The notes under the pieces were generated by a model. The model was not told the origin of the DNA. It did not search any database and worked only from the letters and a program-made list of their open reading frames with translations. This document shows, in pieces, positions 115 to 20,026 of a stretch of DNA of 64,000 nt. The DNA is from Escherichia coli. GTDB taxonomy: Bacteria; Pseudomonadota; Gammaproteobacteria; Enterobacterales; Enterobacteriaceae. Made by a program: the position numbers and the translations under genes. The stretch's first letter is position 1; the number at the start of each line of letters is the position of its first letter. The stretch lies in NCBI RefSeq assembly GCF_044324785.1, contig NZ_CP172129.1; one strand, given 5' to 3'.

Positions 115-421
115 GGGGGCTTCTATAATAATAATAATCGAGCATGAGTCTCATACGGATGCTCGGGTCGAAAGGGAATCCCCAGGCGAGTAACCTGTTT
201 GCGGTGATCCATTAGCTGCAGGAGCAGAATAGCATACATCTGGAAGCAAAGCCAGGAAAGCGGCCTATGGAGCTGTGCGGCAGCGCTCAGTAGGCAATTT
301 TTCAAAATATTGTTAAGCCTTTTCTGAGCATGGTATTTTTCATGGTATTACCAATTAGCAGGAAAATAAGTCATTGAATATAAAAGATAAAAATGTCTTG
401 TTTACAATAGAGTGGGGGGGG

Positions 422-1976: not shown

Positions 1977-2796
1977 GGCACTGTTGCAAAGTTAGCGATG
2001 AGGCAGCCTTTTGTCTTATTCAAAGGCCTTACATTTCAAAAACTCTGCTTACCAGGCGCATTTCGCCCAGGGGATCACCATAATAAAATGCTGAGGCCTG
2101 GCCTTTGCGTAGTGCACGCATCACCTCAATACCTTTGATGGTGGCGTAAGCCGTCTTCATGGATTTAAATCCCAGCGTGGCGCCGATTATCCGTTTCAGT
2201 TTGCCATGATCGCATTCAATCACGTTGTTCCGGTACTTAATCTGTCGGTGTTCAACGTCAGACGGGCACCGGCCTTCGCGTTTGAGCAGAGCAAGCGCGC
2301 GACCATAGGCGGGCGCTTTATCCGTGTTGATGAATCGCGGGATCTGCCACTTCTTCACGTTGTTGAGGATTTTACCCAGAAACCGGTATGCAGCTTTGCT
2401 GTTACGACGGGAGGAGAGATAAAAATCGACAGTGCGGCCCCGGCTGTCGACGGCCCGGTACAGATACGCCCAGCGGCCATTGACCTTCACGTAGGTTTCA
2501 TCCATGTGCCACGGGCAAAGATCGGAAGGGTTACGCCAGTACCAGCGCAGCCGTTTTTCCATTTCAGGCGCATAACGCTGAACCCAGCGGTAAATCGTGG
2601 AGTGATCGACATTCACTCCGCGTTCAGCCAGCATCTCCTGCAGCTCACGGTAACTGATGCCGTATTTGCAGTACCAGCGTACGGCCCACAGAATGATGTC
2701 ACGCTGAAAATGCCGGCCTTTGAATGGGTTCATGTGCAGCTCCATCAGCAAAAGGGGATGATAAGTTTATCACCACCGACTATTTGCAACAGTGCC
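1977..2796 (-). mobile_element. IS26 (820 bp) with 14-bp terminal inverted repeats GGCACTGTTGCAAA
   Basis: GGCACTGTTGCAAA at 1977-1990 and its reverse complement at 2783-2796. The length is exactly 820 bp and the internal Tnp26 ORF is present. The flanking 8 bp differ (gatttacc vs gttttcga). Confidence 0.97.
2029..2733 (-). CDS. tnpA: IS26 transposase Tnp26 (234 aa)
   Basis: MNPFKGRHFQRDIILWAVRWYCKYGISYRELQEMLAERGVNVDHSTIYRWVQRYAPEMEKRLRWYW... recognised as Tnp26. The track ORF adds 6 upstream codons. Confidence 0.96.
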   Translation of the reverse strand: MNPFKGRHFQRDIILWAVRWYCKYGISYRELQEMLAERGVNVDHSTIYRWVQRYAPEMEKRLRWYWRNPSDLCPWHMDETYVKVNGRWAYLYRAVDSRGRTVDFYLSSRRNSKAAYRFLGKILNNVKKWQIPRFINTDKAPAYGRALALLKREGRCPSDVEHRQIKYRNNVIECDHGKLKRIIGATLGFKSMKTAYATIKGIEVMRALRKGQASAFYYGDPLGEMRLVSRVFEM

Positions 2797-3893
2797 GTTT
2801 TCGACGCCAGTGGCACCAACAATGCGCACAGCCCATAGCCAAGTGTGTGACTGGCCGCAAGCCAGCCCGCGCCTGCGCCGTCGGCCAGCTTATCATTCAG
2901 TAAAAGTTGATAAGCGGGTGTTGCCAGAGCGGCCCCAAATGACAGCACTGCACAGCCCAGGTAAAACAACCATAGCTGTTCAGTGAGCATGATAGCCAGA
3001 CCACTACTCATCAACACCCCGGCACTCAGGAGCAGAGCCACTGGAGTCAGGCGCTGTGGACGGAGTACCACGAACTGCGCGATAAGCGCAGCTATTGCGG
3101 ACAGCCCCAACAACCACGCCACCTGTTGGCTAATAGTGGTGGTATCAGTATCGAACTGGCGAGTAAGGGCTGGCGAAAGTCCAAGCTGCATCATGCTCAT
3201 TGCCGCAGCCAGTAACATTGCGCAAAGCAGATAAGGCAGGCAATCCCGCTTCAGGCTGACGCTCTTGCGCTCCGGTGTGGGCTGTGGTGGTGTGCCGGGC
3301 AACCGCAGAAGCATCACCACAGCCCACACCGGAGCTGCCATCAGCATCCACACTGGCGCCAGAGGGTGAATGACCAACATTGCCGCCGCGCACAGCGGCC
3401 CGAATAGCCTGCCGCAGCTCAGGCCGGAGCTGATGGTTGCCAGAGCGGCCATGCGATTCCCTTCTCCCGCTCTCTGCAATGCCCAGACCTGACAGGCTGG
3501 CACCATTGCTGACACGGTCAGACCGTAGACGATCCGGGCGATGATTAATATTCCCAACCCCACCGCTGTTGTTACGGCACCGGTAGCCATCAGCACGCTT
3601 CCCAGCCCAAGCAGGGTAAAGCTTACGCCATATCCTCCCAGAGCCCACAGCACCACAGTCTTACTGCCAGTAAGGGAAATTTGCTTTCCCCACCATGGGG
3701 AAGATGGCAGAAACAGCATTGAGCCCAGCATCAGCAGGGCAGCCCATACAGACAGACTCAGATTTGTCTGTATGACCAGAACAGGGAGTACAACCAGCAG
3801 ACCGTTCTGTCCGATACCGAGAAGACCGGCACTGAACGCCAGTGGCCAGCAGGACAGGGTTTTTTGGGGCGTATCTTCGATCTTAGATGACAT
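2797..3893 (-). pseudogene. shiF: MFS transporter ShiF (aerobactin-locus associated), 3' end removed by IS26
   Basis: 382-aa multi-TM ORF divergent from iucA. Its last ~16 codons (ALLQIVGGDKLIIPFC) are read from IS26 sequence, so the native C-terminus is missing. The shiF name comes from remembered SHI-2/ColV context. Confidence 0.7.
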
Positions 3894-3965
3894 TGTAATG
3901 TTTCAACACCATGTATTAATTGTGTTTATTTGTAAAATTAATTTTTCTGACAATAACATTTCTCA

Positions 3966-4004
3966 TTGATAATGAGAATCATTATTGACATAATTGTTAT
4001 TATT
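3966..4004 (+). promoter_or_regulatory. Aerobactin P1 promoter with overlapping Fur boxes
   Basis: TTGATA (3966-3971), a 17-nt spacer, then CATAAT (3989-3994). GATAATGAGAATCATTATT at 3968-3986 matches the classical Fur box. A second AT-rich Fur-protected stretch follows, to 4004. Confidence 0.9.
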
Positions 4005-4028
4005 TTACTGTGTAGGAGCTGTTTGATT

Positions 4029-5753
4029 ATGATCCTGCCCTCTGAAAAATCCGCCACAGATGTGGCTGCGCAGTGCTTCCTGAATGCCTTGATTCGTGAA
4101 ACCAAAGACTGGCAACTGGCGGAATACCCGCCAGACGAATTGATTATCCCGCTGGACGAACAGAAGTCGCTCCATTTCAGAGTGGCTTATTTCTCCCCAA
4201 CCCAGCATCACCGCTTTGCATTTCCTGCTCATCTGGTCACGGCATCAGGCAGTTATCCTGTCGACTTTACCACTCTCTCCCGGCTTATTATTGATAAGCT
4301 CCGGCATCAACTTTTTCTGCCAGTTCCCCTCTGCGAAACTTTCCACCAACGCGTGCTGGAAAGCTACGCCCATACGCAACAGACAATTGATGCCCGCCAT
4401 GACTGGGCCATCCTGCGTGAAAAAGCGTTGAATTTTGGCGAGGCTGAGCAGGCACTGCTGACAGGACACGCTTTCCACCCTGCACCTAAGTCTCATGAAC
4501 CGTTTAACCGCCAGGAAGCTGAACGATACCTGCCTGACATGGCACCTCACTTCCCGCTGCGGTGGTTTTCGGTGGATAAAACGCAAATCGCTGGTGAAAG
4601 TCTGCATCTTAACCTTCAACAGCGGTTGACGCGATTTGCCGCAGAAAATGCGCCCCAGTTACTCAACGAATTAAGTGACAATCAATGGCTGTTCCCGCTG
4701 CACCCGTGGCAGGGAGAATATCTTTTGCAGCAAGTGTGGTGCCAGGCACTTTTTGCTAAAGGACTTATCAGAGACTTAGGCGAGGCCGGCACGTCGTGGC
4801 TGCCGACCACCTCTTCCCGCTCCCTCTACTGTGCTACCAGCCGCGATATGATCAAGTTCTCCCTGAGCGTTCGGCTGACCAACTCCGTCCGTACTCTGTC
4901 TGTGAAAGAGGTGGAGCGAGGAATGCGCCTGGCACGTCTGGCGCAAACCGACGGCTGGCAGATGCTACAGGCCCGCTTCCCTACTTTCCGGGTAATGCAG
5001 GAGGACGGCTGGGCCGGGCTGCGCGATCTTAACGGCAACATCATGCAGGAAAGTTTGTTTTCCCTGCGTGAAAACCTGCTGCTGGAGCAGCCGCAAAGCC
5101 AGACCAACGTTCTGGTTTCCCTGACTCAGGCCGCACCGGATGGCGGTGATTCGCTGCTGGTTTCGGCGGTAAAACGCCTGAGCGATCGCCTCGGTATCAC
5201 TGTGCAACAGGCCGCCCACGCATGGGTCGATGCTTACTGTCAGCAGGTGCTGAAGCCTCTGTTTACGGCTGAAGCGGATTACGGCCTGGTGCTGCTGGCG
5301 CATCAGCAAAATATTCTTGTGCAGATGCTTGGGGATCTGCCGGTCGGATTTATTTACCGTGACTGCCAGGGCAGCGCGTTTATGCCTCACGCGACAGAGT
5401 GGCTCGATACCATTGACGAGGCGCAGGCGGAAAATATTTTCACCCGTGAGCAGTTGCTGCGCTATTTCCCTTATTACCTGCTGGTTAACTCCACTTTTGC
5501 CGTAACTGCTGCGCTGGGTGCTGCCGGGCTGGACAGCGAAGCGAATCTGATGGCTCGTGTACGAACATTGCTGGCTGAAGTGCGTGACCAGGTGACTCAT
5601 AAAACCTGTCTCAACTATGTTCTGGAAAGTCCGTACTGGAACGTAAAAGGTAACTTTTTCTGTTATCTGAACGATCATAACGAGAACACCATCGTTGACC
5701 CTTCGGTGATCTATTTTGATTTCGCTAACCCGCTGCAGGCTCAGGAGGTCTGA
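4029..5753 (+). CDS. iucA: Aerobactin synthetase IucA (574 aa)
   Basis: MILPSEKSATDVAAQCFLNALIRETKDWQL... with IucA/IucC-family length and context. The ATG at 4029 has AGGAG upstream. The track start at 3966 lies inside the Fur box and promoter. Confidence 0.95.
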   Translation: MILPSEKSATDVAAQCFLNALIRETKDWQLAEYPPDELIIPLDEQKSLHFRVAYFSPTQHHRFAFPAHLVTASGSYPVDFTTLSRLIIDKLRHQLFLPVPLCETFHQRVLESYAHTQQTIDARHDWAILREKALNFGEAEQALLTGHAFHPAPKSHEPFNRQEAERYLPDMAPHFPLRWFSVDKTQIAGESLHLNLQQRLTRFAAENAPQLLNELSDNQWLFPLHPWQGEYLLQQVWCQALFAKGLIRDLGEAGTSWLPTTSSRSLYCATSRDMIKFSLSVRLTNSVRTLSVKEVERGMRLARLAQTDGWQMLQARFPTFRVMQEDGWAGLRDLNGNIMQESLFSLRENLLLEQPQSQTNVLVSLTQAAPDGGDSLLVSAVKRLSDRLGITVQQAAHAWVDAYCQQVLKPLFTAEADYGLVLLAHQQNILVQMLGDLPVGFIYRDCQGSAFMPHATEWLDTIDEAQAENIFTREQLLRYFPYYLLVNSTFAVTAALGAAGLDSEANLMARVRTLLAEVRDQVTHKTCLNYVLESPYWNVKGNFFCYLNDHNENTIVDPSVIYFDFANPLQAQEV

Positions 5754-6701
5754 ATGTCTGGGGCAAACATTGTTCACAGCGGATATGGACTGCGCTGTGA
5801 AAAACTCGACAAGCCTCTGAATCTTGGCTGGGGGCTGGACAATAGCGCGGTGTTGCACTGGCCCGGGGAGCTGCCAACAGGGTGGCTGTGCGACGCGCTG
5901 GATCAGATATTTATCGCCGCACCACAACTTTCAGCAGTGGTTCTTCCCTGGTCCGAATGGTGTGAGGAGCCACAGGCGCTGACGCTTTTCGGACAGGTAC
6001 AAAGCGACATTATCCATCGTTCCGCTTTCTGGCAGTTACCGTTATGGCTGAGTTCTCCGGCAAACCGGGCCTCCGGTGAAATGGTTTTTGATGCAGAGCG
6101 TGAGATTTATTTCCCGCAGCGCCCCCCCCGTCCGCAGGGTGAAGTTTATCGTCGTTACGATCCACGCATTCGCAGGATGCTGAGTTTCCGCATTGCCGAT
6201 CCCGTTTCTGATGCAGAACGTTTCACTCGCTGGATGAACGATCCGCGCGTTGAGTATTTCTGGGAGCAAAGTGGCTCACTGGAGGTACAGATCGCCTATC
6301 TGGAACGCCAGCTCACCAGTAAACATGCATTCCCGCTGATTGGTTGTTTCGACGATCGGCCGTTCAGTTATTTCGAAATCTACTGGGCGGCGGAAGACCG
6401 CATTGGTCGCCACTATTCGTGGCAGCCCTTTGACCGTGGCCTGCATCTGCTGGTTGGTGAACAGCAATGGCGCGGAGCCCACTATGTGCAAAGCTGGCTG
6501 CGCGGGGTGACACATTACCTGCTGCTGAATGAGCCACGTACGCAGCGCACAGTACTGGAGCCACGCATCGATAACCAGCGCCTGTTCCGCCATCTTGAGC
6601 CTGCGGGATACCGGACAATTAAAGAGTTCGACTTCCCACATAAACGCTCGCGCATGGTGATGGCGGATCGTCATCACTTCTTCACGGAGGTCGGTCTGTA
6701 A
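5754..6701 (+). CDS. iucB: N6-hydroxylysine O-acetyltransferase IucB
   Basis: 315 aa, starting immediately after the iucA stop. Second gene of the iuc operon. Confidence 0.95.
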   Translation: MSGANIVHSGYGLRCEKLDKPLNLGWGLDNSAVLHWPGELPTGWLCDALDQIFIAAPQLSAVVLPWSEWCEEPQALTLFGQVQSDIIHRSAFWQLPLWLSSPANRASGEMVFDAEREIYFPQRPPRPQGEVYRRYDPRIRRMLSFRIADPVSDAERFTRWMNDPRVEYFWEQSGSLEVQIAYLERQLTSKHAFPLIGCFDDRPFSYFEIYWAAEDRIGRHYSWQPFDRGLHLLVGEQQWRGAHYVQSWLRGVTHYLLLNEPRTQRTVLEPRIDNQRLFRHLEPAGYRTIKEFDFPHKRSRMVMADRHHFFTEVGL

Positions 6702-8443
6702 TGAATCACAAAGACTGGGATTTGGTCAACCGCCGCCTGGTGGCAAAAATGTTGTCTGAGCTGGAGTATGAGCAGGTTTTCCACGCGGAATCTCAGGGCG
6801 ATGACCGCTACTGCATTAACCTGCCGGGAGCACAATGGCGCTTCATCGCTGAACGTGGTATCTGGGGCTGGCTCTGGATTGATGCTCAAACTCTGCGCTG
6901 CGCGGACGAGCCAGTACTGGCTCAGACGCTGCTGATGCAGCTAAAGCAGGTACTGTCAATGAGCGATGCAACCGTTGCTGAGCATATGCAGGATTTGTAT
7001 GCCACGCTGCTGGGCGACCTGCAACTACTGAAAGCCCGTCGCGGGCTGAGCGCCAGTGACCTGATTAATCTTAATGCCGACCGCCTGCAATGCCTGCTGA
7101 GCGGTCATCCTAAATTCGTTTTTAATAAAGGTCGCCGTGGCTGGGGTAAAGAGGCGCTGGAACGATATGCGCCAGAGTATGCCAACACCTTCAGACTGCA
7201 CTGGCTGGCGGTAAAACGTGAACATATGATCTGGCGCTGTGATAACGAGATGGATATTCATCAGTTGTTGACGGCCGCAATGGATCCGCAGGAGTTTGCC
7301 CGCTTCAGTCAGGTCTGGCAGGAAAACGGACTGGATCATAACTGGCTGCCGCTGCCGGTACATCCGTGGCAGTGGCAGCAAAAAATCGCTACCGACTTCA
7401 TCGCTGATTTTGCCGAAGGCAGGATGGTGTCTCTCGGCGAGTTTGGCGACCAGTGGCTCGCCCAGCAGTCGCTGCGTACCCTGACCAACGCCAGTCGCCG
7501 GGGCGGGCTGGATATCAAGCTGCCGCTGACCATCTACAACACCTCATGCTACCGGGGGATCCCTGGCAGATACATCGCTGCCGGACCACTGGCTTCACGC
7601 TGGCTACAACAGGTTTTTGCGACCGACGCCACCCTAGTGCAAAGCGGCGCAGTGATACTTGGTGAACCGGCTGCAGGCTATGTCTCCCATGAAGGCTATG
7701 CCGCGCTTGCCTGGGCTCCCTATCGCTACCAGGAAATGCTTGGTGTTATCTGGCGGGAGAATCCGTGCCGCTGGCTGAAACCGGATGAAAGTCCGGTTCT
7801 GATGGCAACACTGATGGAGTGCGACGAAAACAATCAGCCGCTGGCAGGCGCATATATAGACCGCTCCGGGCTGGACGCTGAAACCTGGCTTACGCAACTG
7901 TTCCGGGTGGTCGTGGTTCCTCTGTATCACCTGCTTTGCCGCTACGGTGTCGCGCTTATTGCACATGGACAAAATATAACTCTCGCCATGAAAGAGGGGG
8001 TTCCACAGCGTGTTCTGCTGAAAGACTTCCAGGGCGATATGCGACTGGTGAAAGAAGAGTTCCCCGAAATGGACTCTTTGCCTCAGGAGGTTCGTGATGT
8101 TACATCCCGCCTGAGTGCGGACTACTTAATCCATGATTTGCAGACGGGTCACTTCGTGACAGTACTGCGTTTTATTTCGCCACTGATGGTTCGTCTTGGC
8201 GTACCTGAAAGGCGATTTTATCAACTGCTGGCAGCAGTGTTGAGTGATTACATGAAAAAACATCCACAAATGTCAGAGCGTTTTGCGCTTTTCTCACTTT
8301 TCAGGCCACAAATCATTCGCGTGGTGCTGAACCCGGTAAAACTGACCTGGCCTGATCTGGATGGCGGCAGCCGCATGCTGCCGAATTACCTTGAGGATCT
8401 GCAAAATCCGCTGTGGCTGGTAACTCAGGAATATGAATCATGA
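6701..8443 (+). CDS. iucC: Aerobactin synthetase IucC
   Basis: 580 aa IucA/IucC-family paralogue. Its start overlaps the iucB stop. Confidence 0.95.
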   Translation: MNHKDWDLVNRRLVAKMLSELEYEQVFHAESQGDDRYCINLPGAQWRFIAERGIWGWLWIDAQTLRCADEPVLAQTLLMQLKQVLSMSDATVAEHMQDLYATLLGDLQLLKARRGLSASDLINLNADRLQCLLSGHPKFVFNKGRRGWGKEALERYAPEYANTFRLHWLAVKREHMIWRCDNEMDIHQLLTAAMDPQEFARFSQVWQENGLDHNWLPLPVHPWQWQQKIATDFIADFAEGRMVSLGEFGDQWLAQQSLRTLTNASRRGGLDIKLPLTIYNTSCYRGIPGRYIAAGPLASRWLQQVFATDATLVQSGAVILGEPAAGYVSHEGYAALAWAPYRYQEMLGVIWRENPCRWLKPDESPVLMATLMECDENNQPLAGAYIDRSGLDAETWLTQLFRVVVVPLYHLLCRYGVALIAHGQNITLAMKEGVPQRVLLKDFQGDMRLVKEEFPEMDSLPQEVRDVTSRLSADYLIHDLQTGHFVTVLRFISPLMVRLGVPERRFYQLLAAVLSDYMKKHPQMSERFALFSLFRPQIIRVVLNPVKLTWPDLDGGSRMLPNYLEDLQNPLWLVTQEYES

Positions 8444-9717
8444 AAAAAAGTGTCGATTTTATTGGTGTAGGGACAGGGCCATTTAATCTCAGCATTGCTG
8501 CGTTGTCACATCAGATCGAAGAACTGGACTGTCTCTTCTTTGATGAACATCCTCATTTTTCCTGGCATCCGGGTATGCTGGTACCGGATTGTCATATGCA
8601 GACCGTCTTTCTGAAAGATCTGGTCAGTGCTGTTGCACCTACAAATCCCTACAGTTTTGTTAACTATCTGGTGAAGCACAAAAAGTTCTATCGCTTCCTT
8701 ACAAGCAGACTACGTACAGTATCCCGTGAAGAGTTTTCTGACTACCTCCGCTGGGCTGCTGAAGATATGAATAACCTGTATTTCAGTCATACCGTTGAAA
8801 ACATTGATTTCGATAAAAAACGTCGATTGTTTCTGGTGCAAACCAGCCAGGGAGAATATTTTGCCCGCAATATCTGCCTTGGTACAGGAAAACAACCTTA
8901 TTTACCACCCTGTGTGAAGCATATGACACAATCCTGTTTCCATGCCAGTGAAATGAATCTTCGTCGGCCGGACCTTAGTGGAAAACGGATAACCGTGGTT
9001 GGTGGAGGACAGAGTGGTGCAGACCTGTTCCTTAATGCATTACGCGGGGAATGGGGAGAAGCGGCGGAAATAAACTGGGTCTCCCGGCGTAATAATTTTA
9101 ACGCACTGGATGAGGCTGCTTTTGCTGATGAGTATTTTACACCTGAATATATTTCAGGCTTCTCCGGACTGGAGGAAGATATTCGCCATCAGTTACTGGA
9201 TGAGCAGAAAATGACATCGGATGGCATCACTGCCGATTCTTTACTGACCATTTATCGTGAGTTGTACCACCGTTTTGAAGTTCTGAGAAAACCAAGAAAT
9301 ATCCGTCTGCTACCCAGCCGCTCGGTAACAACTCTGGAAAGTAGTGGTCCTGGCTGGAAGTTGCTGATGGAGCATCATCTGGATCAGGGCAGGGAGAGCC
9401 TGGAAAGTGATGTGGTGATTTTCGCCACAGGTTACCGTTCTGCGTTGCCACAAATACTTCCCTCACTGATGCCCCTGATCACCATGCACGATAAGAACAC
9501 CTTTAAAGTGCGTGATGACTTCACTCTGGAATGGAGTGGCCCGAAAGAGAACAACATCTTCGTGGTCAACGCCAGTATGCAAACCCATGGCATCGCCGAA
9601 CCCCAGCTCAGCCTGATGGCATGGAGATCTGCACGTATTCTTAATCGCGTAATGGGACGTGATTTATTCGATCTCAGTATGCCGCCCGCCCTGATTCAGT
9701 GGCGCAGCGGCACCTAG
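8440..9717 (+). CDS. iucD: L-lysine N6-monooxygenase IucD
   Basis: 425 aa with an N-terminal dinucleotide-binding GVGTGPFN motif and a second GGGQSG motif. Overlaps the iucC stop by 4 nt. Confidence 0.95.
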   Translation: MKKSVDFIGVGTGPFNLSIAALSHQIEELDCLFFDEHPHFSWHPGMLVPDCHMQTVFLKDLVSAVAPTNPYSFVNYLVKHKKFYRFLTSRLRTVSREEFSDYLRWAAEDMNNLYFSHTVENIDFDKKRRLFLVQTSQGEYFARNICLGTGKQPYLPPCVKHMTQSCFHASEMNLRRPDLSGKRITVVGGGQSGADLFLNALRGEWGEAAEINWVSRRNNFNALDEAAFADEYFTPEYISGFSGLEEDIRHQLLDEQKMTSDGITADSLLTIYRELYHRFEVLRKPRNIRLLPSRSVTTLESSGPGWKLLMEHHLDQGRESLESDVVIFATGYRSALPQILPSLMPLITMHDKNTFKVRDDFTLEWSGPKENNIFVVNASMQTHGIAEPQLSLMAWRSARILNRVMGRDLFDLSMPPALIQWRSGT

Positions 9718-9798
9718 GGAAAACGCAGCCGGAGGCTGCTTCTTTAACTCGCTACACAGCATCTTTGGGCTGATTTTTTCCGCCCGTATGGAGGAATA

Positions 9799-12000
9799 AT
9801 GATGATAAGCAAAAAGTATACGCTTTGGGCTCTCAACCCACTGCTTCTTACCATGATGGCGCCAGCAGTCGCTCAACAAACCGATGATGAAACGTTCGTG
9901 GTGTCTGCCAACCGCAGCAATCGCACCGTAGCGGAGATGGCGCAAACCACCTGGGTTATCGAAAACGCCGAACTGGAACAGCAGATTCAGGGCGGCAAAG
10001 AGCTTAAAGACGCACTGGCTCAGCTGATCCCTGGCCTTGACGTCAGCAGCCGGAGCCGCACCAACTACGGTATGAATGTGCGTGGCCGCCCGCTGGTCGT
10101 GCTGGTTGACGGCGTGCGTCTCAACTCTTCACGTACCGACAGCCGACAACTGGACTCTATAGATCCTTTTAATATCGACCATATTGAAGTGATCTCCGGT
10201 GCGACGTCCCTGTACGGCGGCGGCAGTACCGGTGGCCTGATCAACATCGTGACCAAAAAAGGCCAGCCGGAAACCATGATGGAGTTTGAGGCTGGCACCA
10301 AAAGTGGCTTTAGCAGCAGTAAAGATCACGATGAACGCATTGCCGGAGCTGTCTCCGGCGGAAATGAGCATATCTCCGGACGTCTTTCCGTGGCATATCA
10401 GAAATTTGGCGGCTGGTTTGACGGTAACGGCGATGCCACCTTGCTTGATAACACCCAGACCGGCCTGCAGTACTCCGATCGGCTGGACATCATGGGAACT
10501 GGTACGCTGAACATCGATGAATCCCGGCAGCTTCAGTTGATCACACAGTACTATAAAAGCCAGGGCGACGACGATTACGGGCTTAATCTCGGGAAAGGCT
10601 TCTCTGCCATCAGAGGGACCAGCACGCCATTCGTCAGTAACGGGCTGAATTCCGACCGTATTCCCGGCACTGAGCGGCATTTGATCAGCCTGCAGTACTC
10701 TGACAGCGCTTTTCTGGGACAGGAGCTGGTCGGTCAGGTTTACTACCGCGATGAGTCGTTGCGATTCTACCCGTTCCCGACGGTAAATGCGAACAAACAG
10801 GTGACGGCTTTCTCTTCGTCACAGCAGGACACCGACCAGTACGGCATGAAACTGACTCTGAACAGCAAACCGATGGACGGCTGGCAAATCACCTGGGGGC
10901 TGGATGCTGATCATGAGCGCTTTACCTCCAACCAGATGTTCTTCGACCTGGCTCAGGCAAGCGCTTCCGGAGGGCTGAACAACAAGAAGATTTACACCAC
11001 CGGGCGCTATCCGTCGTATGACATCACCAACCTGGCGGCCTTCCTGCAATCAGGCTATGACATCAATAATCTCTTTACCCTCAACGGTGGCGTACGCTAT
11101 CAGTACACTGAAAACAAGATTGATGATTTCATCGGCTACGCGCAGCAACGGCAGATTGCCGCCGGGAAGGCTACATCCGCCGACGCCATTCCTGGCGGCT
11201 CAGTCGATTACGACAACTTCCTGTTCAACGCCGGTCTGCTGATGCACATCACCGAACGCCAGCAGGCATGGCTCAACTTCTCCCAGGGCGTGGAGCTGCC
11301 GGACCCGGGTAAATACTATGGTCGCGGCATCTATGGTGCTGCAGTGAACGGCCATCTTCCTCTAACAAAGAGTGTGAACGTCAGCGACAGCAAGCTGGAA
11401 GGCGTGAAAGTCGATTCTTATGAGCTGGGCTGGCGCTTTACTGGCAATAATCTGCGTACCCAAATCGCGGCCTACTATTCGATTTCTGATAAGAGCGTGG
11501 TGGCGAATAAAGATCTGACCATCAGCGTGGTGGACGACAAACGCCGTATTTACGGCGTGGAAGGTGCGGTGGACTACCTGATTCCTGATACTGACTGGAG
11601 TACCGGAGTGAACTTCAACGTGCTGAAAACTGAGTCGAAAGTGAACGGTACCTGGCAGAAATACGATGTGAAGACAGCAAGCCCATCAAAAGCGACAGCC
11701 TACATTGGCTGGGCACCGGACCCGTGGAGTCTGCGCGTGCAGAGCACCACCTCCTTTGACGTGAGCGACGCGCAGGGCTACAAGGTCGATGGCTATACCA
11801 CCGCGGATCTGCTCGGCAGTTATCAGCTTCCGGTGGGTACACTCAGCTTCAGCATTGAAAACCTCTTCGACCGTGACTACACCACTGTCTGGGGGCAGCG
11901 TGCACCACTGTACTACAGCCCGGGTTACGGCCCAGCGTCACTGTACGACTACAAAGGCAGGGGCCGAACCTTTGGTCTGAACTACTCTGTGCTGTTCTGA
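9799..12000 (+). CDS. iutA: TonB-dependent ferric aerobactin receptor IutA
   Basis: 733 aa with signal peptide ...MMAPAVAQQ, a TonB-box-like DETFVVSA and a C-terminal ...NYSVLF beta-barrel terminus. Confidence 0.95.
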   Translation: MMISKKYTLWALNPLLLTMMAPAVAQQTDDETFVVSANRSNRTVAEMAQTTWVIENAELEQQIQGGKELKDALAQLIPGLDVSSRSRTNYGMNVRGRPLVVLVDGVRLNSSRTDSRQLDSIDPFNIDHIEVISGATSLYGGGSTGGLINIVTKKGQPETMMEFEAGTKSGFSSSKDHDERIAGAVSGGNEHISGRLSVAYQKFGGWFDGNGDATLLDNTQTGLQYSDRLDIMGTGTLNIDESRQLQLITQYYKSQGDDDYGLNLGKGFSAIRGTSTPFVSNGLNSDRIPGTERHLISLQYSDSAFLGQELVGQVYYRDESLRFYPFPTVNANKQVTAFSSSQQDTDQYGMKLTLNSKPMDGWQITWGLDADHERFTSNQMFFDLAQASASGGLNNKKIYTTGRYPSYDITNLAAFLQSGYDINNLFTLNGGVRYQYTENKIDDFIGYAQQRQIAAGKATSADAIPGGSVDYDNFLFNAGLLMHITERQQAWLNFSQGVELPDPGKYYGRGIYGAAVNGHLPLTKSVNVSDSKLEGVKVDSYELGWRFTGNNLRTQIAAYYSISDKSVVANKDLTISVVDDKRRIYGVEGAVDYLIPDTDWSTGVNFNVLKTESKVNGTWQKYDVKTASPSKATAYIGWAPDPWSLRVQSTTSFDVSDAQGYKVDGYTTADLLGSYQLPVGTLSFSIENLFDRDYTTVWGQRAPLYYSPGYGPASLYDYKGRGRTFGLNYSVLF

Positions 12001-12029
12001 CCGGTATTCCTTTACAACAAAGGTACGCT

Positions 12030-12065
12030 GATATCAACATGGCCGCTGACAGCCAAGTTGATATC
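12030..12065 (+). terminator. Hairpin downstream of iutA (14-bp stem, 1 mismatch)
   Basis: gatatcaacatggc / gccaagttgatatc flank an 8-nt loop, 30 nt after the iutA stop. No clean U-tract follows. Confidence 0.45.
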
Positions 12066-12072
12066 ATATAAT

Positions 12073-12133
12073 ACACGACATAATCTGTAGTCAGGGAGGA
12101 TAGACTCTTTACTGACTACAGATTATGTCGTGT
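12073..12133. repeat. Perfect 22-bp inverted repeat with 17-nt spacer
   Basis: acacgacataatctgtagtcag (12073-12094) and ctgactacagattatgtcgtgt (12112-12133). Confidence 0.9.
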
Positions 12134-12419
12134 TCCGTGCTCATTTCCTCAAAAAATACAAGAAAAGAATTAGTATTCTAACAAAAAGTGAAATAAATTG
12201 TATCAAACTCCCTCTTTTAATCCTGTTGAGTAAATCAGCTTTTGCAATAGGATTGAAAGAGTGTAAGTGGAATCTCTTCCGGATACTCGTTACCACCGTG
12301 GCTAGAATATCTACGGCTGCGGGCCAGTAATAGATTAAGTGATAACAGCTGTCTGGAAATGTAGGGGCGTATCCACTAATCATAATCATTGTGAGATAAA
12401 TATTACGGGGCATTTTATA

Positions 12420-12469
12420 ATGAATAAAATATACTCTCTAAAATATTGTCATATTACCAATACCATGAA
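12420..12469 (+). pseudogene. 5' remnant (16 codons) of an autotransporter gene with extended signal peptide region, truncated by IS1
   Basis: ATG at 12420 encodes MNKIYSLKYCHITNTM, matching the MNKIYxLKYC/S ESPR consensus of SPATE-type autotransporters (SepA, EspC and Pic N-termini as remembered). The reading frame runs straight into the IS1 left repeat at 12470. Confidence 0.6.
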
Positions 12470-12524
12470 GGTGATGCTGCCAACTTACTGATTTAGTGTA
12501 TGATGGTGTTTTTGAGGTGCTCCA

Positions 12525-12800
12525 GTGGCTTCTGTTTCTATCAGCTGTCCCTCCTGTTCAGCTACTGACGGGGTGGTGCGTAACGGCAAAAGCACCGCCG
12601 GACATCAGCGCTATCTCTGCTCTCACTGCCGTAAAACATGGCAACTGCAGTTCACTTACACCGCTTCTCAACCCGGTACGCACCAGAAAATCATTGATAT
12701 GGCCATGAATGGCGTTGGATGCCGGGCAACTGCCCGCATTATGGGCGTTGGCCTCAACACGATTTTACGTCACTTAAAAAACTCAGGCCGCAGTCGGTAA
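12525..12800 (+). CDS. insA: IS1 InsA
   Basis: 91 aa [51 protein letters not shown]... The A6C slippery run at 12776-12782 supports the -1 frameshift into insB. Confidence 0.95.
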
Positions 12801-13222
12801 CCTCGCGCATACAGCCGGGCAGTGACGTCATCGTCTGCGCGGAAATGGACGAACAGTGGGGCTATGTCGGGGCTAAATCGCGCCAGCGCTGGCTGTTTTA
12901 CGCGTATGACAGTCTCCGGAAGACGGTTGTTGCGCACGTATTCGGTGAACGCACTATGGCGACGCTGGGGCGTCTTATGAGCCTGCTGTCACCCTTTGAC
13001 GTGGTGATATGGATGACGGATGGCTGGCCGCTGTATGAATCCCGCCTGAAGGGAAAGCTGCACGTAATCAGCAAGCGATATACGCAGCGAATTGAGCGGC
13101 ATAACCTGAATCTGAGGCAGCACCTGGCACGGCTGGGACGGAAGTCGCTGTCGTTTTCAAAATCGGTGGAGCTGCATGACAAAGTCATCGGGCATTATCT
13201 GAACATAAAACACTATCAATAA
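12719..13222 (+). CDS. insB: IS1 InsB frame (expressed as InsAB' transposase by -1 frameshifting)
   Basis: 167-aa ORF overlapping the insA 3' end in the -1 frame, the classical IS1 organisation. Confidence 0.93.
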
Positions 13223-13419
13223 GTTGGAGTCATTACCGCCTTGACCATCAGATAGTTATTTTGGTGCTAGGGATACTGAGTGTGAACAGTTAGCGCGCGT
13301 CCTCGCCAGTTAGCTCGCTACGCTCGGTTACACGACGGCTACGAGTACTAGTGATAATTATTGACTGAGGTATGTGCTCTTCCTGTTTCCTTTTTTGATG
13401 TGTTGCTCTCATTTTAAAC

Positions 13420-13500
13420 AACTTTGCGGTTTTTTGACTACTTTGCAATTTTGTTGTTGCTTTGCAATAAAATGCAAGATTAAATGAAAATATGCAAAGC
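13420..13500 (+). promoter_or_regulatory. sopAB promoter/operator with CTTTGC SopA-binding hexamers
   Basis: CTTTGC at 13422-13427, 13441-13446 and 13460-13465, and the inverted GCAAAG at 13494-13499, immediately upstream of sopA. Confidence 0.75.
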
Positions 13501-14688: not shown

Positions 14689-15659
14689 TGAAGCGTGCGC
14701 CTGTCATTCCAAAACATACGATTAAGACTCAACCGCTTGAAGATACTCCGTCATCGGCACCAGCTGCACCGATGGTGGATTCGTTAATTGCGCGCGTAGG
14801 AGCTATGGCTCGTGGCAATGCTATTACTTTGCCTGTATGTGGTAGGGACGTGAAATTTACCCTTGAGGTGCTCCGGGGAGATAGTGTTGAGAAGACCTCT
14901 CGGGTATGGTCAGGTAATGAACGTGACCAGGAACTGCTTACCGAAGACGCCCTGGATGATCTTATCCCTTCTTTTCTACTGACAGGTCAGCAGACACCAG
15001 CATTCGGTCGAAGAGTGTCTGGGGTCATAGAAATTGCCGATGGGAGCCGCCGTCGTAAAGCTGCTGCACTTACAGAAAGTGATTATCGAGTTCTGGTTGG
15101 TGAGCTGGATGATGAGCAGATGGCTGCATTGTCCAGATTGGGTAACGATTATAGGCCAACAAGTGCTTATGAACGTGGTCAGCGTTATGCAAGCCGATTG
15201 CAGAATGAATTTGCTGGAAATATTTCTGCGCTGGCTGATGCAGAAAATATTTCACGTAAGATTATTACCCGCTGTATCAACACAGCTAAACTGCCTAAAT
15301 CAGTTGTTGCTCTTTTTTCTCATCCCGGTGAACTATCTGCCCGGTCAGGTGATGCACTTCAAAGAGCTTTTACAGATAAAGAAGAATTACTTAAGCAGCA
15401 GGCATCTAACCTTCACGAGCAGAAAAAAGCAGGAGTGATATTTGAAGCTGAAGAAGTCATCACTCTTTTAACGTCTGTGCTTAAAACGTCATCTGCCTCA
15501 AGAACTAGCTTAAGCTCACGACATCAGTTTGCTCCTGGAGCGACAGTGTTGTACAAGGGCGATAAAATGGTGTTAAACCTAGATAGATCTCGTATTCCAA
15601 CTGAGTGTATAGAGAGAATTGAAGCCATTCTTAAGGAACTTGAAAAAGCGGCACTTTGA
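14688..15659 (+). CDS. sopB: Centromere-binding protein SopB (ParB family)
   Basis: 323 aa, start overlapping the sopA stop, followed by sopC repeats. Confidence 0.95.
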
Positions 15660-15750
15660 TGCGGCACGTTTTAGTCTACATTTATCTGTCTTTACTTAAT
15701 TTCCTTTAGCACAGGCTAGAAAACATAACTAACTGGCCTGAATATTATAT

Positions 15751-16137
15751 CTGGGACCACGGTCCCAGTTGTATTGTCGGTCTGATAATCAGTCTGGGAC
15801 CACGGTCCCACTCATATTGTCGGTCTGATAATCAGTCTGGGACCACGGTCCCACTCATATTGTTGGTCTGCTAATCAGTCTGGGACCACGGTCCCACTCA
15901 TATTGTCGGTCTGCTAATCAGTCTGGGACCACGGTCCCACTCATATTGTTGGTCTGATTATCGGTCTGGGACCACGGTCCCACTCATATTGTTAGTCTGA
16001 TAATCAGTCTGGGACCGCGGTCCCACTCGTATTGTTGGTCTGCTAATCAGTCTGGGACCACGGTCTCACTTGTATTGTCGATCTGATTATCAGCGTGAGA
16101 CTACGATTCCATTAATGCCTGCCAGTGAGTGTGTGGA
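15751..16137. repeat. sopC: sopC centromere: 8 intact 43-bp tandem repeats plus 1 degenerate unit
   Basis: Units start at 15751, 15794, 15837, 15880, 15923, 15966, 16009 and 16052. Each carries the 16-bp palindrome TGGGACCACGGTCCCA. A degenerate ninth unit (cgtgagactacgattcca) begins near 16094. Confidence 0.93.
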
Positions 16138-16705
16138 ACATATCTTGGCCAGTGGCTTGGTCTGTGATGTGCTGCGTATACCGGGTGAACCGCCCCGCCG
16201 CTTGTTTGACCGCTATATTCTGCGGGAGTTTTCTTGGAGGCACGGGATGAAATCCGCAGCATGGCGGATGCCCTGGCAAAAATCCGGAAATGATGACGAT
16301 GGCGGGGAAAATCCCCGCCTTTTTCCTGCCGGTCCCCGGACAGAGCACAAAGGAAGTCGCCGCCGGCTCCGCTTTACCCGGCCATGCGGAGCATGGCCTT
16401 GTGGGGGTTCAGTTATGTGGACGTCGAGTCGTGTGCGGGCTGTGCCGTGCCTCCATCTTAGCCGGGCTGGCGTTGATGCAAGCAACTGTCTTAATGGGAG
16501 GCGGTTATCTGAAAAAAGTACGGGATAATATTATGGAATCGCCCATCTCAAGCAAAAAACTGACTCGCTTCGATACTACGCTGACAGGCTGTTTTGAGCG
16601 AGATATCTCTCGTGTCGGGCATCGACATTTTAAATGATTCTAAATAATATGAGCAGGGTCAGTCTTATTAAAGATTAAAACACCGGATAACAAGTTTTAT
16701 TGATT

Positions 16706-17281
16706 ATGGATGAAGAGAAAACTCGTGCTGAAGTGGCACACATAGAATTTATTTCATATGGTACGTCTCGAATTTTTGATAGGCGTATGAGATCCTTAGA
16801 CTGGAAGCGTAAGGTTGTCACCTTCCTTGGGGTCTTTGTTCCACTGATGATAGGTTGTGCAGTTTTATCATTCGGACTTGAAGCTCCATTTCTGCCGCTT
16901 TGCATCACAATTGCCGGTGTGGCAAGTATCATGCAATTGGGGTTCTCGCTGTGGTCTTTGGTTTCCGGATGGGATCGCTCATATAGTGATTGCATGGCTT
17001 CCGTTAAGGAAAATACAGCCATTTATAACCTAGCTGGTAGTGTTCGCAAGAAAATAGGTAAGCTTGACGAAGCCAAATTGGAAATTTTGATAGACGATTT
17101 GACGGAAAAATTTGAGCGAAGGGAGCAGGAAGACTTAACTTTGTGTGTGAGTGATAAAGAACTTCGTTATGCAAACCGTATGTCCTGTTTCTACTTCAAA
17201 AAAAAATGCCATATTTGTAATGTCGTTCCCCTAACTTTGAAACCGGGAAAATGTGTTTGTGATGGTTGTGGGAAATTTTAA
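16706..17281 (+). CDS. Hypothetical 2-TM protein, SLATT-like architecture with C-terminal Cys cluster (CHIC-x11-CVCDGC)
   Basis: 191 aa from the ATG at 16706 (the track uses TTG at 16700). A charged N-terminal helix is followed by two adjacent hydrophobic helices (VVTFLGVFVPLMIGCAVLSFGL and FLPLCITIAGVASIMQLGFSLWSLV). A charged helical region and then a Cys-rich tail complete the protein. AT-rich relative to the flanks. No strong SD. Confidence 0.7.
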   Translation: MDEEKTRAEVAHIEFISYGTSRIFDRRMRSLDWKRKVVTFLGVFVPLMIGCAVLSFGLEAPFLPLCITIAGVASIMQLGFSLWSLVSGWDRSYSDCMASVKENTAIYNLAGSVRKKIGKLDEAKLEILIDDLTEKFERREQEDLTLCVSDKELRYANRMSCFYFKKKCHICNVVPLTLKPGKCVCDGCGKF

Positions 17282-17293
17282 CAAGGAGAACAT

Positions 17294-17506
17294 ATGAGTA
17301 GTGCAAAAATTCTTAACGCTTACTTCGAGGCTTCTGAAGAAGATCGAAAGGAGTTCCTACGGGTTCTTAGTCATTTTTATAAGGATAACCGAAGAGTACC
17401 TCTGCAAGAGGGCATGGAGAGCTTTGCCGTCAATGAAAGCATCCGTAAATCGCAGTCAATTAACTTTGCCCCTATGCAAGGTGGGTGTCCACTCTGCGGC
17501 AAGTAA
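17294..17506 (+). CDS. Hypothetical 70-aa protein ending in CPLCGK, likely co-transcribed with the 2-TM protein
   Basis: ATG lies 12 nt after the upstream stop and is preceded by AAGGAG. The N-terminus is acidic and helical (EASEEDRKEFLRVLSHFYKD), and a CxxC sits at the extreme C-terminus. Confidence 0.65.
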   Translation: MSSAKILNAYFEASEEDRKEFLRVLSHFYKDNRRVPLQEGMESFAVNESIRKSQSINFAPMQGGCPLCGK

Positions 17507-17513
17507 CGACCAA

Positions 17514-17532
17514 AGCCGCTTGACTAGCGGCT
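17514..17532 (+). terminator. Hairpin after the two-gene cassette
   Basis: agccgct / agcggct 7-bp stem with a 5-nt loop, 8 nt after the stop. A T-rich stretch (gatagatttctttat) follows. Confidence 0.45.
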
Positions 17533-17559
17533 TGATAGATTTCTTTATATTGTAACTAG

Positions 17560-18940
<1,381 letters not shown>

Positions 18941-19139
18941 TCCCTCCTTCCCGTCTGCCGTGATTTTCCGGTCGTTTACCCGCTCAGATTTCGCGGTCTC
19001 ACCCTCCAACTCCCGCCAGCCGTGTGTGTCAGGCTGCGGCTTCCCTTGCGCCCTTTGCATCCCCGCCTTATCGCCCGGCTTTTATGGAGGCACGGCACAG
19101 CCCGGTGTCGCGGAATATGTGAACAACGGAGGAAATCCC

Positions 19140-19565
19140 ATGCAGTATGCGAAACCTGTCACTCTGAATGTTGAAGAGTGCGACCGTCTGTCTTTTCTGC
19201 CTTACCTGTTTGGCAACGATTTTCTGTATGCCGAAGCATATGTGTACGCGCTGGCGCAAAAAATGATGCCGGAATATCAGGGAGGCTTCTGGCACTTCAT
19301 CCGCCTGCCGGACGGTGGCGGTTACATGATGCCGGATGGCGACCGTTTTCATCTGGTTAACGGTGAAAACTGGTTTGACCGCACGGTCAGTGCCGATGCC
19401 GCAGGCATCATTCTGACTTCCCTTGTGATTAACCGCCAGTTGTGGCTGTACCACGACAGCGGTAACGCAGGGCTGACACACCTGTACCGGATGCGTGATG
19501 CGCAGTTGTGGAGCCACATCGAATTTCACCCCGAATGTAACGCGATTTACGCGGCGCTGGACTGA
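19140..19565 (+). CDS. klcA: Antirestriction protein, KlcA/ArdB family (141 aa)
   Basis: [67 protein letters not shown]... matches the remembered Antirestrict/KlcA family of F-like leading regions. The ATG at 19140 has GGAGG upstream. The upstream part of the track ORF is GC-rich non-coding. Confidence 0.8.
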
Positions 19566-19654
19566 TTAACGGACGGGGCGGCAATGCCGCCCCTGTAAAG
19601 GAGACGAGAACATGTACTGTTAAAGAAATTATCCGCGATGTACTGGATACAGAC

Positions 19655-20026
19655 GTGCCGGACAGTGAATGCGTTTTTGCCGTGGTGCTGACCCGTGGGA
19701 ATGTGCGCCATATGGCTCAGGACTGGAACCTGTCAGACGATGAGCTGGAAACCGTCATGCAGCGGCTGGACGATGCTTTTGTATATGGCGCATGTGACAG
19801 AGTTGTTTCCGATATTGTCAATGAACTGATGGAGGAAAAGCGCGTAAACCGCCTTGTAACAGTCCCTGCGGTGCTGCTGGAAAAAGTGATGGTGATGGCT
19901 GGTAGTGAAATTTATCGCCTCCATGCTGTCGGGAGCGAGAACGGGGGCGACGGTGACGCATTTGTCAGGGAAGAACGTGAGATTATGCGGGTGATGCGTC
20001 AGGCGCTGGACGGGGAGAACGGGTAA
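19655..20026 (+). CDS. Leading-region hypothetical protein (123 aa as called; 5' end probably frameshifted)
   Basis: Long acidic ORF. The only in-frame start is GTG at 19655, yet a strong SD and ATG (19612) sit 43 nt upstream in another frame (see findings). Confidence 0.6.
   Translation: MPDSECVFAVVLTRGNVRHMAQDWNLSDDELETVMQRLDDAFVYGACDRVVSDIVNELMEEKRVNRLVTVPAVLLEKVMVMAGSEIYRLHAVGSENGGDGDAFVREEREIMRVMRQALDGENG

Follow-up and report, generated by a model that had tools for sequence, protein, structure and literature searches.

We examined a two-gene cassette at positions 16706 to 17532 of a 64,000-nt stretch of Escherichia coli DNA (contig NZ_CP172129.1 of RefSeq assembly GCF_044324785.1), referred to here as the window. 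The first gene encodes a membrane protein of 191 amino acids (aa), which we call the effector, and the second encodes a 70-aa protein that ends in a cysteine knuckle, which we call the partner. A first-pass annotation made from the sequence alone had picked out the pair as an uncharacterized, SLATT-like cassette. The features of the cassette are listed here by window position.

16622..16650, + strand: candidate sigma-70-like promoter, TCGACA-17-TAATAT, upstream of the effector gene (consensus scan alone, 9/12 positions)
16678..17548, + strand: portable module, the DNA common to the Pectobacterium, Franconibacter, and Citrobacter-type island copies at 81-84% identity
16706..17281, + strand: effector gene, encoding a 191-aa Mob_CxxC_CxxC protein (TIGR04402 / PF27874; RefSeq WP_000343071.1)
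16814..16963, + strand: transmembrane (TM) hairpin of the effector, approximately residues 37-58 and 62-86, with the short loop LEAP between them (hydropathy)
17207..17269, + strand: predicted C-terminal C4 zinc ribbon of the effector (C168, C171, C185, C188)
17283..17288, + strand: Shine-Dalgarno sequence AAGGAG of the partner gene, within the 12-nt spacer (direct sequence reading)
17294..17506, + strand: partner gene, encoding the 70-aa protein WP_000092896.1, labeled "hypothetical," whose N-terminal helical hairpin is followed by a flexible tail
17486..17503, + strand: terminal single Cys knuckle, CPLCGK, at the extreme C terminus of the partner
17513..17533, + strand: terminator-like hairpin with an 8-bp stem and a 5-nt loop, then a T-rich tract (direct sequence reading)

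The effector open reading frame (ORF) runs from an ATG at 16706 to a stop codon at 17279-17281 in both the sequence and the ORF list, with an alternative upstream start (TTG at 16700) that would give a 193-aa protein with two extra residues. The partner ORF starts with an ATG at 17294 and stops at 17504-17506. Both ORFs, their 12-nt spacing, the AAGGAG, and the downstream hairpin are present in the sequence as the first-pass annotation had them. The arms and loop of the hairpin read AAGCCGCT-tgact-AGCGGCTT; a strict terminator-pattern scan did not call this hairpin at 17513-17533, and it falls within the conserved module as bounded by blastn. The blastn edges lie at 16678-17533 for the Pectobacterium island (L005) and at 16692-17548/17551 for five other loci (L007-L011), and the conserved unit of ∼870 bp extends from just before the effector start codon to just past the hairpin. 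The promoter candidate lies outside this unit, in a portion of the insert that the chromosomal islands do not have in common. The claimed AT-richness relative to both flanks was borne out, with a GC fraction of 0.38-0.43 across 16600-17600 versus 0.55-0.56 upstream and 0.51-0.53 downstream. A scan of 15600-19300 against Rfam found no RNA family.

As judged from sequence comparison with the chromosomal-island homologues (DNA 81-84% identical), both genes are under strong purifying selection. The ratio of nonsynonymous to synonymous substitution rates (dN/dS) was 0.05-0.09 for the effector and 0.04-0.07 for the partner. Given these low ratios and the family match of the effector described below, both ORFs are real genes and not chance reading frames.

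The effector is a full-length member of a named mobilome family

The effector is a full-length member of TIGR04402 / PF27874, the "mobilome CxxCx(11)CxxC protein" family (Mob_CxxC_CxxC). It matched NCBIfam TIGR04402 with 185.8 bits (cutoff, 70; E = 8.4e-55), and its residues 8-191 aligned to profile positions 2-180 of 180. The first-pass annotation had suggested that this NCBI family may correspond, correctly as it turns out. RefSeq uses the TIGR04402 name for WP_000343071.1, and ∼340 IncF plasmids carry this label. The Pfam label PF27874 is attached to all homologues in the public protein collection; the model is newer than the Pfam copy that we searched, in which, without PF27874, neither window protein matched.

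Every one of the 103 relatives that we aligned matches TIGR04402. A HMMER scan of 1.84 billion cluster representatives recovered 442 members at E <= 1e-3, each of them representing a 50%-identity cluster, and nearly all are single-domain proteins of 180-210 aa. The Cys motif CxxC-x(9-16)-CxxC stands at the end of 134 of the 146 representatives inspected, with a spacing of x11 in 113. When genome contigs were scanned with a profile from a narrow alignment of the family, one locus was found.

The AlphaFold2 model of the effector (predicted local distance difference test [pLDDT], 80.7) has helices at residues 3-56, 63-87, 89-116, 122-146, and 151-164. The first of these is long, and its second half is the first TM helix (TM1); a loop of 4-5 residues leads into the second (TM2, 63-87), and the last three are modeled as cytoplasmic helices followed by a Cys tail of lower confidence. 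Two hydrophobic peaks are also seen in the hydropathy profiles of 121 of 124 relatives. Seven of the 16 residues preceding TM1 are K or R (positive-inside rule), and this segment, together with the tiny loop, suggests that both ends of the protein are cytoplasmic (N-in/C-in). The sequence and the model thus show the effector as an inner-membrane protein in which a two-helix hairpin of N-in/C-in topology is joined to a helical bundle in the cytoplasm and a C-terminal C4 zinc ribbon. The charged N-terminal helix, two hydrophobic helices, charged region, and zinc tail read from the letters alone were all recovered by sequence, AlphaFold2, and hydropathy.

Conservation was computed over the 103 relatives, which are 25-40% identical. 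Near-invariant positions occur in the N-terminal helix (T20, F24, R27), in TM1 (G42, P46, G50), in TM2 (Q77) and just past it (W89), in the cytoplasmic helices (D143, E152, R158, L161), and in the ribbon (P175, the four Cys, G189). Within the ribbon, the first Cys pair (C168, C171) is invariant and the second (C185, C188) is kept in at least 90% of the relatives; weak matches to Zn_ribbon_NOB1 and DZR were also found for the family in Pfam. The first-pass annotation had described the tail as a CxxC-x11-CxCxxC zinc ribbon. The Cys residues are indeed there, but the conserved ligands are C168/C171/C185/C188, that is, CxxC-x13-CxxC. The wider spacing comes from a 2-residue insertion without counterpart in the x11 relatives, which also brings in the fifth, nonconserved Cys of the "CVC."

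A small Cys-knuckle partner accompanies the effector

In all 15 contexts examined, the partner gene comes directly after the effector gene, lying -32 to +16 nt from the stop codon of the latter. These contexts come from Enterobacterales and Vibrio, from two actinomycetes (Amycolatopsis and Rhodococcus), and from uncultured lineages represented only by metagenomic contigs, and the suspicion that the small Cys-tailed protein is a true partner therefore holds across phyla. A homologue of 70 aa is found in a close clade comprising Pectobacterium, Citrobacter-type islands, Franconibacter, Xenorhabdus, and Pantoea. Beside more distant effectors (25-38% identity), partners of 67 aa (Vibrio splendidus), 63-81 aa (metagenomic lineages), 65 aa (Amycolatopsis), 70 aa (a Rhodococcus conjugative plasmid), and 65 aa (a lineage flanked by BsuBI-type restriction genes) were found. 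The partner (63-81 aa) is thereby shown to be an obligate, co-inherited companion of the effector.

Automated annotation systematically misses the partner gene. In four loci, it was uncalled or unannotated and was found by scanning the gap downstream of the effector (L006, 5503-5715; L019, 7623-7820; L020, 1237-1440; L022, 7586-7783). The two proteins also occur as natural fusions among the database representatives (P0085, 260 aa; P0086, 241 aa). P0085 has a W at the stop-codon position, which could stem from mutation of TGA to TGG or from the gene caller's use of an alternative genetic code. Read-through of the stop codon as a general route to fusion was considered and rejected: although effector and partner share a reading frame in the window, they do so in just 4 of 14 loci, as chance would predict.

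The most conserved part of the partner is its tail. P60, C65, C68, and G69 are invariant across 14 diverse partners, and every one of the 15 partners has CxxCG(K/R) at its C terminus, in one case with an additional R. The tail follows the pattern (F/L)(G/A)Pxxxx-C-P-x-C-G-(K/R), with the stop codon directly after it, and the N-terminal helical segment reads roughly (V/I)L..(F/Y)..L...E..E(F/L). AlphaFold2 predicts helices at 3-12 and 15-32 with a pLDDT of ∼90, a weak third helix, and a disordered tail. We found no relative of the partner in Pfam or the Protein Data Bank. It is not acidic, as it had first been described, since it has 10 K/R against 9 D/E and an isoelectric point of ∼7.8. A role as the precursor of a ribosomally synthesized and posttranslationally modified peptide was rejected because its surroundings hold no conserved modifying enzyme.

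One CPxCG knuckle makes up half of a rubredoxin-type site. Since one CxxC knuckle cannot bind zinc tetrahedrally by itself, an intermolecular site is suggested. The first-pass annotation had raised the possibility that the partner knuckle completes the metal site of the effector. This is disfavored, and we rejected it, because the Cys quartet of the effector is already full across the 103 relatives and no other Cys or His is conserved. For the same reason, the partner knuckle most plausibly pairs with the knuckle of a second partner.

Probable remote kinship of the effector with SLATT domains

SLATT domains are the two-TM effectors of CBASS, Pycsar, and DRT10-type immune systems, and they are said to have been proposed as membrane-perturbing effectors of conflict systems by Burroughs et al. 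in 2015. The effector had been likened to them on the basis of its layout of a helix, two TM helices, and a further helix. We compared the effector and its relatives with the SLATT models of Pfam (SLATT_1-5/fungal/DUF4231) and NCBIfam (NF03363x). NCBIfam SLATT_1 matches 54 of the 103 relatives (best E = 2.5e-5) and SLATT_4 matches 18 (best E = 8.6e-6), while SLATT_5, SLATT_6, and SLATT_fungal match one relative each; the next unrelated membrane family matches just 9 of 103. The SLATT_1 alignments are colinear, with residues ∼27-135 of the proteins against positions 13-124 of the 132-position profile, and so extend beyond the hairpin alone. Weak matches within the effector family were also seen to DUF4231, SLATT_4, and SLATT_fungal in Pfam and to the CBASS "2TM," RTasSLATT (reverse transcriptase [RT]-associated SLATT), and PycTM models in PADLOC.

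A structural search gave a similar picture. With Foldseek, the effector model was compared with the BFVD viral models, and SLATT-annotated giant-virus proteins ranked 2, 4, 5, 10, 12, 14, 17, 25, 40, and 43. They were the highest named matches among the viral models, the best of them having E = 0.017 and a TM-score of 0.52, and none reached E <= 1e-3. Remote SLATT kinship is thus supported by two independent lines, profiles and structure, both of them below threshold. The membrane core of the effector is probably a divergent branch of the SLATT superfamily with an added zinc ribbon; the effector is not a member of any defined SLATT family. Of the initial proposal, the topology and a remote superfamily likeness stand, but the curated SLATT cutoffs were not reached.

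Two-TM SLATT effectors described in two reports include SLATT_4 of type I CBASS (∼190 aa) and SLATT_5 of DRT10/UG17 (PMC11381338; bioRxiv 10.64898/2026.04.29.721553). The effector resembles these proteins in size, in topology (helix, TM hairpin, helices), in its subthreshold profile matches, and in its occurrence in defense islands. It differs from them in its C4 zinc ribbon and in its below-cutoff scores, and its conserved neighbor is a ∼65-aa Cys-knuckle protein and not a SMODS/CD-NTase, SLOG, TIR, or RT protein. The unit thus contains no generator of a nucleotide or cDNA signal.

We tentatively favor a reading in which the protein is an abortive-infection-type membrane effector that is controlled by the partner and needs no nucleotide messenger.

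The pair occurs in many mobile and defense-type contexts

The first-pass annotation had called for a survey of gene neighborhoods, and in all 15 examined the two genes were together. The hosts include IncF plasmids, an actinomycete conjugative plasmid, P4-like islands, prophages, and integrase-linked islands. The module is a self-contained, horizontally mobile two-gene unit. Known or candidate defense genes lie within a few kilobases of it in a hand sample of loci with no background statistic (L005, L008-12, L013, L015, L020, L022, L025, L026, and L031). In the P4-like islands, which have an integrase, AlpA, and a DUF927 primase, the pair stands beside a 576-aa protein that matches the PADLOC dCTP-deaminase defense model (3e-148). 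The Pectobacterium island with the pair adjoins a second island carrying a type I-C retron RT-Toprim gene and a PLD nuclease. Other neighbors are AriA/AriB-like genes, a BsuBI-type restriction-modification pair, a ThsB-type TIR gene (L025), a HEPN_AbiV gene with a 1,658-aa methylase-helicase, and a deaminase gene with a QueC-like gene. The evidence supports viewing these neighborhoods as typical defense-island and prophage accessory-gene territory.

The absence of an adjacent signal generator, noted at the outset for the window, extends to the relatives: SMODS/CD-NTase and SLOG genes are neither adjacent to the pair in the window nor conserved beside relatives in the 15 neighborhoods. The TIR gene (L025) and the retron RT (L005) each occur once and are unrelated neighbors.

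Proteins with deaminase domains were observed beside the pair in two unrelated lineages (L008, 8120-9850, - strand; L031, 4974-5876, + strand). The first is the 576-aa dCTP-deaminase defense protein, and the second is a 300-aa MafB19-type protein followed by the QueC-like gene. This cytidine/dCMP-deaminase adjacency may be a coincidence or a recurring association.

In two loci, the pair lies close to larger genes. In a metagenomic contig (L015), the pair lies between a gene for a 971-aa GajB-like UvrD-PDDEXK helicase-nuclease (3-nt gap) and a methyltransferase gene (16-nt gap), and in Vibrio (L013), a gene for a 583-aa caspase-like/PDC-S65 protein begins 4 nt past the partner. Such arrangements would be expected if the pair were a plug-in effector submodule of larger systems (helicase-nuclease/methyltransferase or caspase-like operons) and the copy in the window a functionless orphan. 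However, the neighbors differ in every context, the module is kept as an 870-bp unit, and many copies stand alone with their own terminator (in the window, the P4-like islands, and the prophages), and we regard this explanation as very unlikely.

In two lambdoid prophages, the pair lies in the early-left accessory region, just upstream of xis-int. This is where genes of the sieB type lie. SieB proteins are prophage exclusion or abortive-infection proteins of ∼190 aa with N-terminal TM helices, from the early-left region of lambdoid phages. The effector is similar to them in size and membrane location, and the pair is similarly placed in these two prophages. An inner-membrane protein that is widespread on mobile elements might also act in superinfection exclusion, blocking entry without killing the cell (compare SieB, Imm, and Sp). 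Several observations speak against this. SieB has neither a zinc ribbon nor a separate Cys-knuckle partner, and no Pfam scan gave any SieB-family match. The kinship that can be detected is to SLATT effectors, which damage the membrane, and most of the protein, like both Cys motifs, is predicted to lie in the cytoplasm, which points to intracellular sensing. We therefore consider exclusion a distinctly unlikely function and retain the partner-controlled, membrane-damaging effector as our preferred reading.

Prevalence, natural knockouts, and expression

A match to the module at >=99% identity was found in 346 plasmid records, and 337 of the 5,426 complete E. coli genomes carry it at that identity, nearly always on plasmids; ColV-type virulence plasmids with the module occur in ∼6% of complete E. 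coli genomes. Natural knockouts of both genes are found among the carriers. A probe across effector codon 111 is uninterrupted in 182 of 336 E. coli carriers, and in the other 154 (46%; L002 and L003 are examples) the insertion sequence (IS) IS1 sits at the identical point in codon 111 (window position ∼17037). The copies with IS1 often have nothing left of the DNA downstream as far as ISEc32. The truncated 111-aa stump (WP_000343070.1), which consists of the N-terminal helix and both TM helices, keeps the family name in annotation.

The partner gene is partial in at most 9 of 207 genomes. In at least two plasmids, from Hong Kong and Germany, an IS3 element lies after codon 35 of the partner gene and the effector gene is intact (L023, NZ_CP019055.1, 4695-4830; L030, NZ_OZ392460.1). 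The insertion leaves a partner stump of 39 aa, 35 of them native, which has no knuckle and retains the N-terminal helical hairpin.

These knockouts bear on the possibility that the pair is a toxin-antitoxin addiction module, in which a stable membrane toxin and a labile small antitoxin would stabilize plasmids, prophages, and islands. The pair would suit such a role in several respects, being two small, tightly coupled genes that are inherited as a unit on many kinds of mobile element, with a larger product that resembles a membrane-damaging protein. But IS3 interrupts the partner gene and leaves the effector intact in at least two plasmids from separate countries, which weakens a simple antitoxin role of the partner, with the caveat that the stump retains the hairpin and might still bind the effector. 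In addition, the effector has been lost through IS1 in 46% of carriers with no compensation seen, the effector-first gene order is unusual, and the natural fusions fit a degradable antitoxin poorly. The host plasmid already has hok and other stability systems. The Hok/Gef proteins are likewise membrane-active killers borne on IncF plasmids, but Hok is a single-TM peptide of ∼50 aa under antisense-RNA control, whereas the pair consists of a 191-aa two-TM protein and a protein partner. An addiction module is, in our estimation, an unlikely explanation compared with an abortive-infection-type effector under partner control.

The plasmid pS88 carries an intact pair. In LB, serum, and urine, quantitative reverse transcription-PCR on pS88 found all the ORFs tested from the stretch between sopB and yubI to be transcribed (PMC3438092). 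Transcripts of pS88039-041 were among those detected, with changes under the authors' 4-fold threshold (PMC3438092). By gene order, pS88040 and pS88041 would correspond to the pair.

Plasmid setting of the module in the window

The window matches a ColV-type IncFIA/FIB plasmid. Its features run in the order sitD, iucABCD-iutA, IS1, sopA, sopB, sopC repeats, cassette, ISEc32, and leading region, and the last of these contains the antirestriction gene yubI, DUF1380, DUF3560, a methyltransferase gene, a ParB-like gene, psiB, hok (at ∼28.6 kb), and DUF932. The origin of transfer, oriT, is near 31.9 kb and is followed by the tra genes. The claimed position between the partition centromere and the leading region, next to an IS110-family element, is thus correct, with sopA/sopB/sopC upstream and ISEc32 downstream, and the leading-region genes are on the plus strand, as claimed, like the module. 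Positions 1-13500 of the window hold a ColV-type virulence cargo of sitD, crcB, an MFS transporter (in a shiF-like position), iucABCD-iutA, and IS1, from which we take the host replicon to be a ColV-like IncFIA/FIB virulence plasmid. The features surrounding the module are as follows.

15750-16093: sopC centromere, eight tandem 43-bp repeats (92% match)
16483..18909, no strand assigned: 2,427-bp insertion relative to typical F-like plasmids, consisting of an AT-rich promoter piece, the two-gene module, and ISEc32
17767..18738, - strand: transposase gene of ISEc32 (IS110 family), a neighbor in the same insertion and not a functional part of the module

The insertion lies at the sopC-proximal (distal) end of the leading region. 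In pEC16-CTX-55, window positions 16123-16482 and 18910-20365 are contiguous, and most of the best-matching 5,000 plasmids have only the flanks, without the insert. The segment is therefore missing from most F-like plasmids, in keeping with the earlier suspicion that it is not part of the F backbone. A different insert of ∼1.3 kb without any annotated gene occupies the same sopC-yubI site in pCERC14 (L029, NZ_MN053930.1, 1070-2340), which suggests that the site is an insertion hot spot.

The ISEc32 element spans window positions 17549-18909. Among the 5,426 complete E. coli genomes, it was seen only beside the module: at least 80% of window 17400-19000 is present in just 200 genomes, and among 30 evenly spaced entries of the matches, all other genomes match just the 90-bp end that belongs to the backbone. 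ISEc32 and the module may have arrived together, or ISEc32 may be inactive in E. coli. The idea that ISEc32 carries the module as cargo was rejected, as the module is without any IS110 element in every non-IncF context.

Two further observations concern the insertion site. A 115-aa "hypothetical protein" (WP_001350917.1; 16290-16637, + strand) spans the insertion junction at 16482/16483, the first half of its gene being GC-rich backbone and the second half AT-rich insert. The ORF is unlikely to be a real gene, and we rejected it as a third component of the module because it spans the junction and is missing from all other contexts. Also, the insertion splits a long inverted repeat (16436-16482 and 18910-19100; arms, 16440-16467 / 19073-19100) just upstream of the antirestriction gene (ATG at 19140). 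With the insert removed, the single-stranded DNA folds at -94.5 kcal/mol, versus -74.9 +/- 4.6 for shuffled sequences. The split repeat may be a single-strand promoter hairpin of the Frpo/ssi type that was disrupted by the insertion.

The position of the module also raises the possibility of a function in establishment or anti-defense, with early expression in the conjugation recipient. Anti-defense genes on the T-strand are enriched in leading regions, among the first ∼30 ORFs (PMC11541004), and the position and strand of the module, ∼15 kb from oriT and in the same orientation as the leading-region genes, fit this pattern. Against such a function, the module is a recent insertion with an IS relative to most F-like plasmids, it also occurs in chromosomal defense islands and prophages that do not conjugate, and a two-TM membrane protein would be an unusual form of anti-defense protein. 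IS1 has destroyed the effector in nearly half of the carriers (46%), and transcripts, as mapped to the pair by gene order, were found in established hosts. Of the functions that we weighed, this is the least probable, and we return to a membrane effector of the abortive-infection type.

Proposed mechanism and comparison with known systems

In the mechanism that we propose, the pair would be a conflict module of abortive-infection type that works without a nucleotide-signal synthase. The module and ISEc32 would have landed as a 2.4-kb insertion in a ColV-type IncF plasmid. The partner would dock on the cytoplasmic domain of the effector and control its assembly or oligomerization, in a 1:1 stoichiometry that we propose on the basis of the natural fusions. 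Two partner tails may share one zinc ion and so bridge effector units. Upon a trigger, for example phage infection, the SLATT-like hairpins would oligomerize, and the assembled hairpins would permeabilize or depolarize the inner membrane. Collapse of the membrane potential and the damage to the membrane would then stop both the cell and the invader.

The sharing of a zinc ion would have a parallel in the Rad50 zinc hook, where CxxC half-sites on two chains hold one zinc ion jointly; by analogy, the partner likewise has a single CxxC knuckle. A more far-reaching form of the proposal, which we find doubtful, is that the pair is an unrecognized two-gene immune system spread across phyla, with a ∼65-aa sensor of the invader whose terminal half-knuckles pair as a "zinc-hook" to drive or restrain a SLATT-type pore whose activation would need no nucleotide second messenger.

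A two-gene logic of this kind is known from type II PANGU, which combines a small nucleoid-associated sensor protein with a transmembrane effector (bioRxiv 10.64898/2026.04.06.716658). Both systems would couple a small soluble protein to a membrane effector, but we detected no sequence relationship between them; the partner has no similarity to nucleoid-associated proteins, and the effector families differ. Compared with the TIGR04402 / PF27874 family at large, the effector in the window shares the size, the two-TM core, the C-terminal Cys quartet, and the mobile-element context and differs by the x13 spacing and the fifth Cys.

It is important to note that a number of observations weigh against the proposed mechanism. 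Some concern the SLATT kinship. The effector in the window itself matched none of the Pfam or NCBIfam SLATT models even at E <= 5, the scores of its relatives (12-20 bits) are below every curated cutoff (41-55 bits; 41 for SLATT_1), and searches of solved structures returned nothing at E <= 1e-3. Others concern the link to defense. Neither window protein matches PADLOC-DB 2.0.0 at E <= 1, and the defense association is drawn from ∼10 hand-inspected neighborhoods and is not a statistical enrichment. No copy of the module was found by tblastn against 50,697 phage genomes or by a pattern scan of IMG/VR with the patterns as used. A literature search found no paper on the family names, the accessions, or PF27874, and no phenotype for any member was found. 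The effector is clearly dispensable on IncF plasmids, as seen from the carriers with IS1 (154/336). An establishment role would likewise be in keeping with the placement of the module in the leading region and its orientation there. Finally, the role of the partner (inhibitor, sensor, or assembly factor) and the zinc bridging are things that we purely infer.

Significance

The effector family already has a name. What we found undescribed are its universal partner, the evidence for SLATT kinship, the defense-type neighborhoods, and the natural knockouts; the annotations of TIGR04402 / PF27874 that we saw cover the effector alone and hold neither the partner nor the SLATT link nor the defense context. 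Many candidate two-gene defense modules exist. SLATT-type effectors are usually the output arm of immunity based on nucleotide or cDNA signaling, and a SLATT-like protein with only a tiny Cys-knuckle companion would, if the proposal is true, show another mode of control and assign a function to a named family. The missed partner gene illustrates that one half of a two-gene system may be hidden in a small ORF. With a length of 870 bp, an E. coli origin, and natural knockouts of each gene, the module is also a handy one to work with. Because it is carried on ColV-type virulence plasmids, a role in phage resistance or in plasmid biology would have practical relevance.

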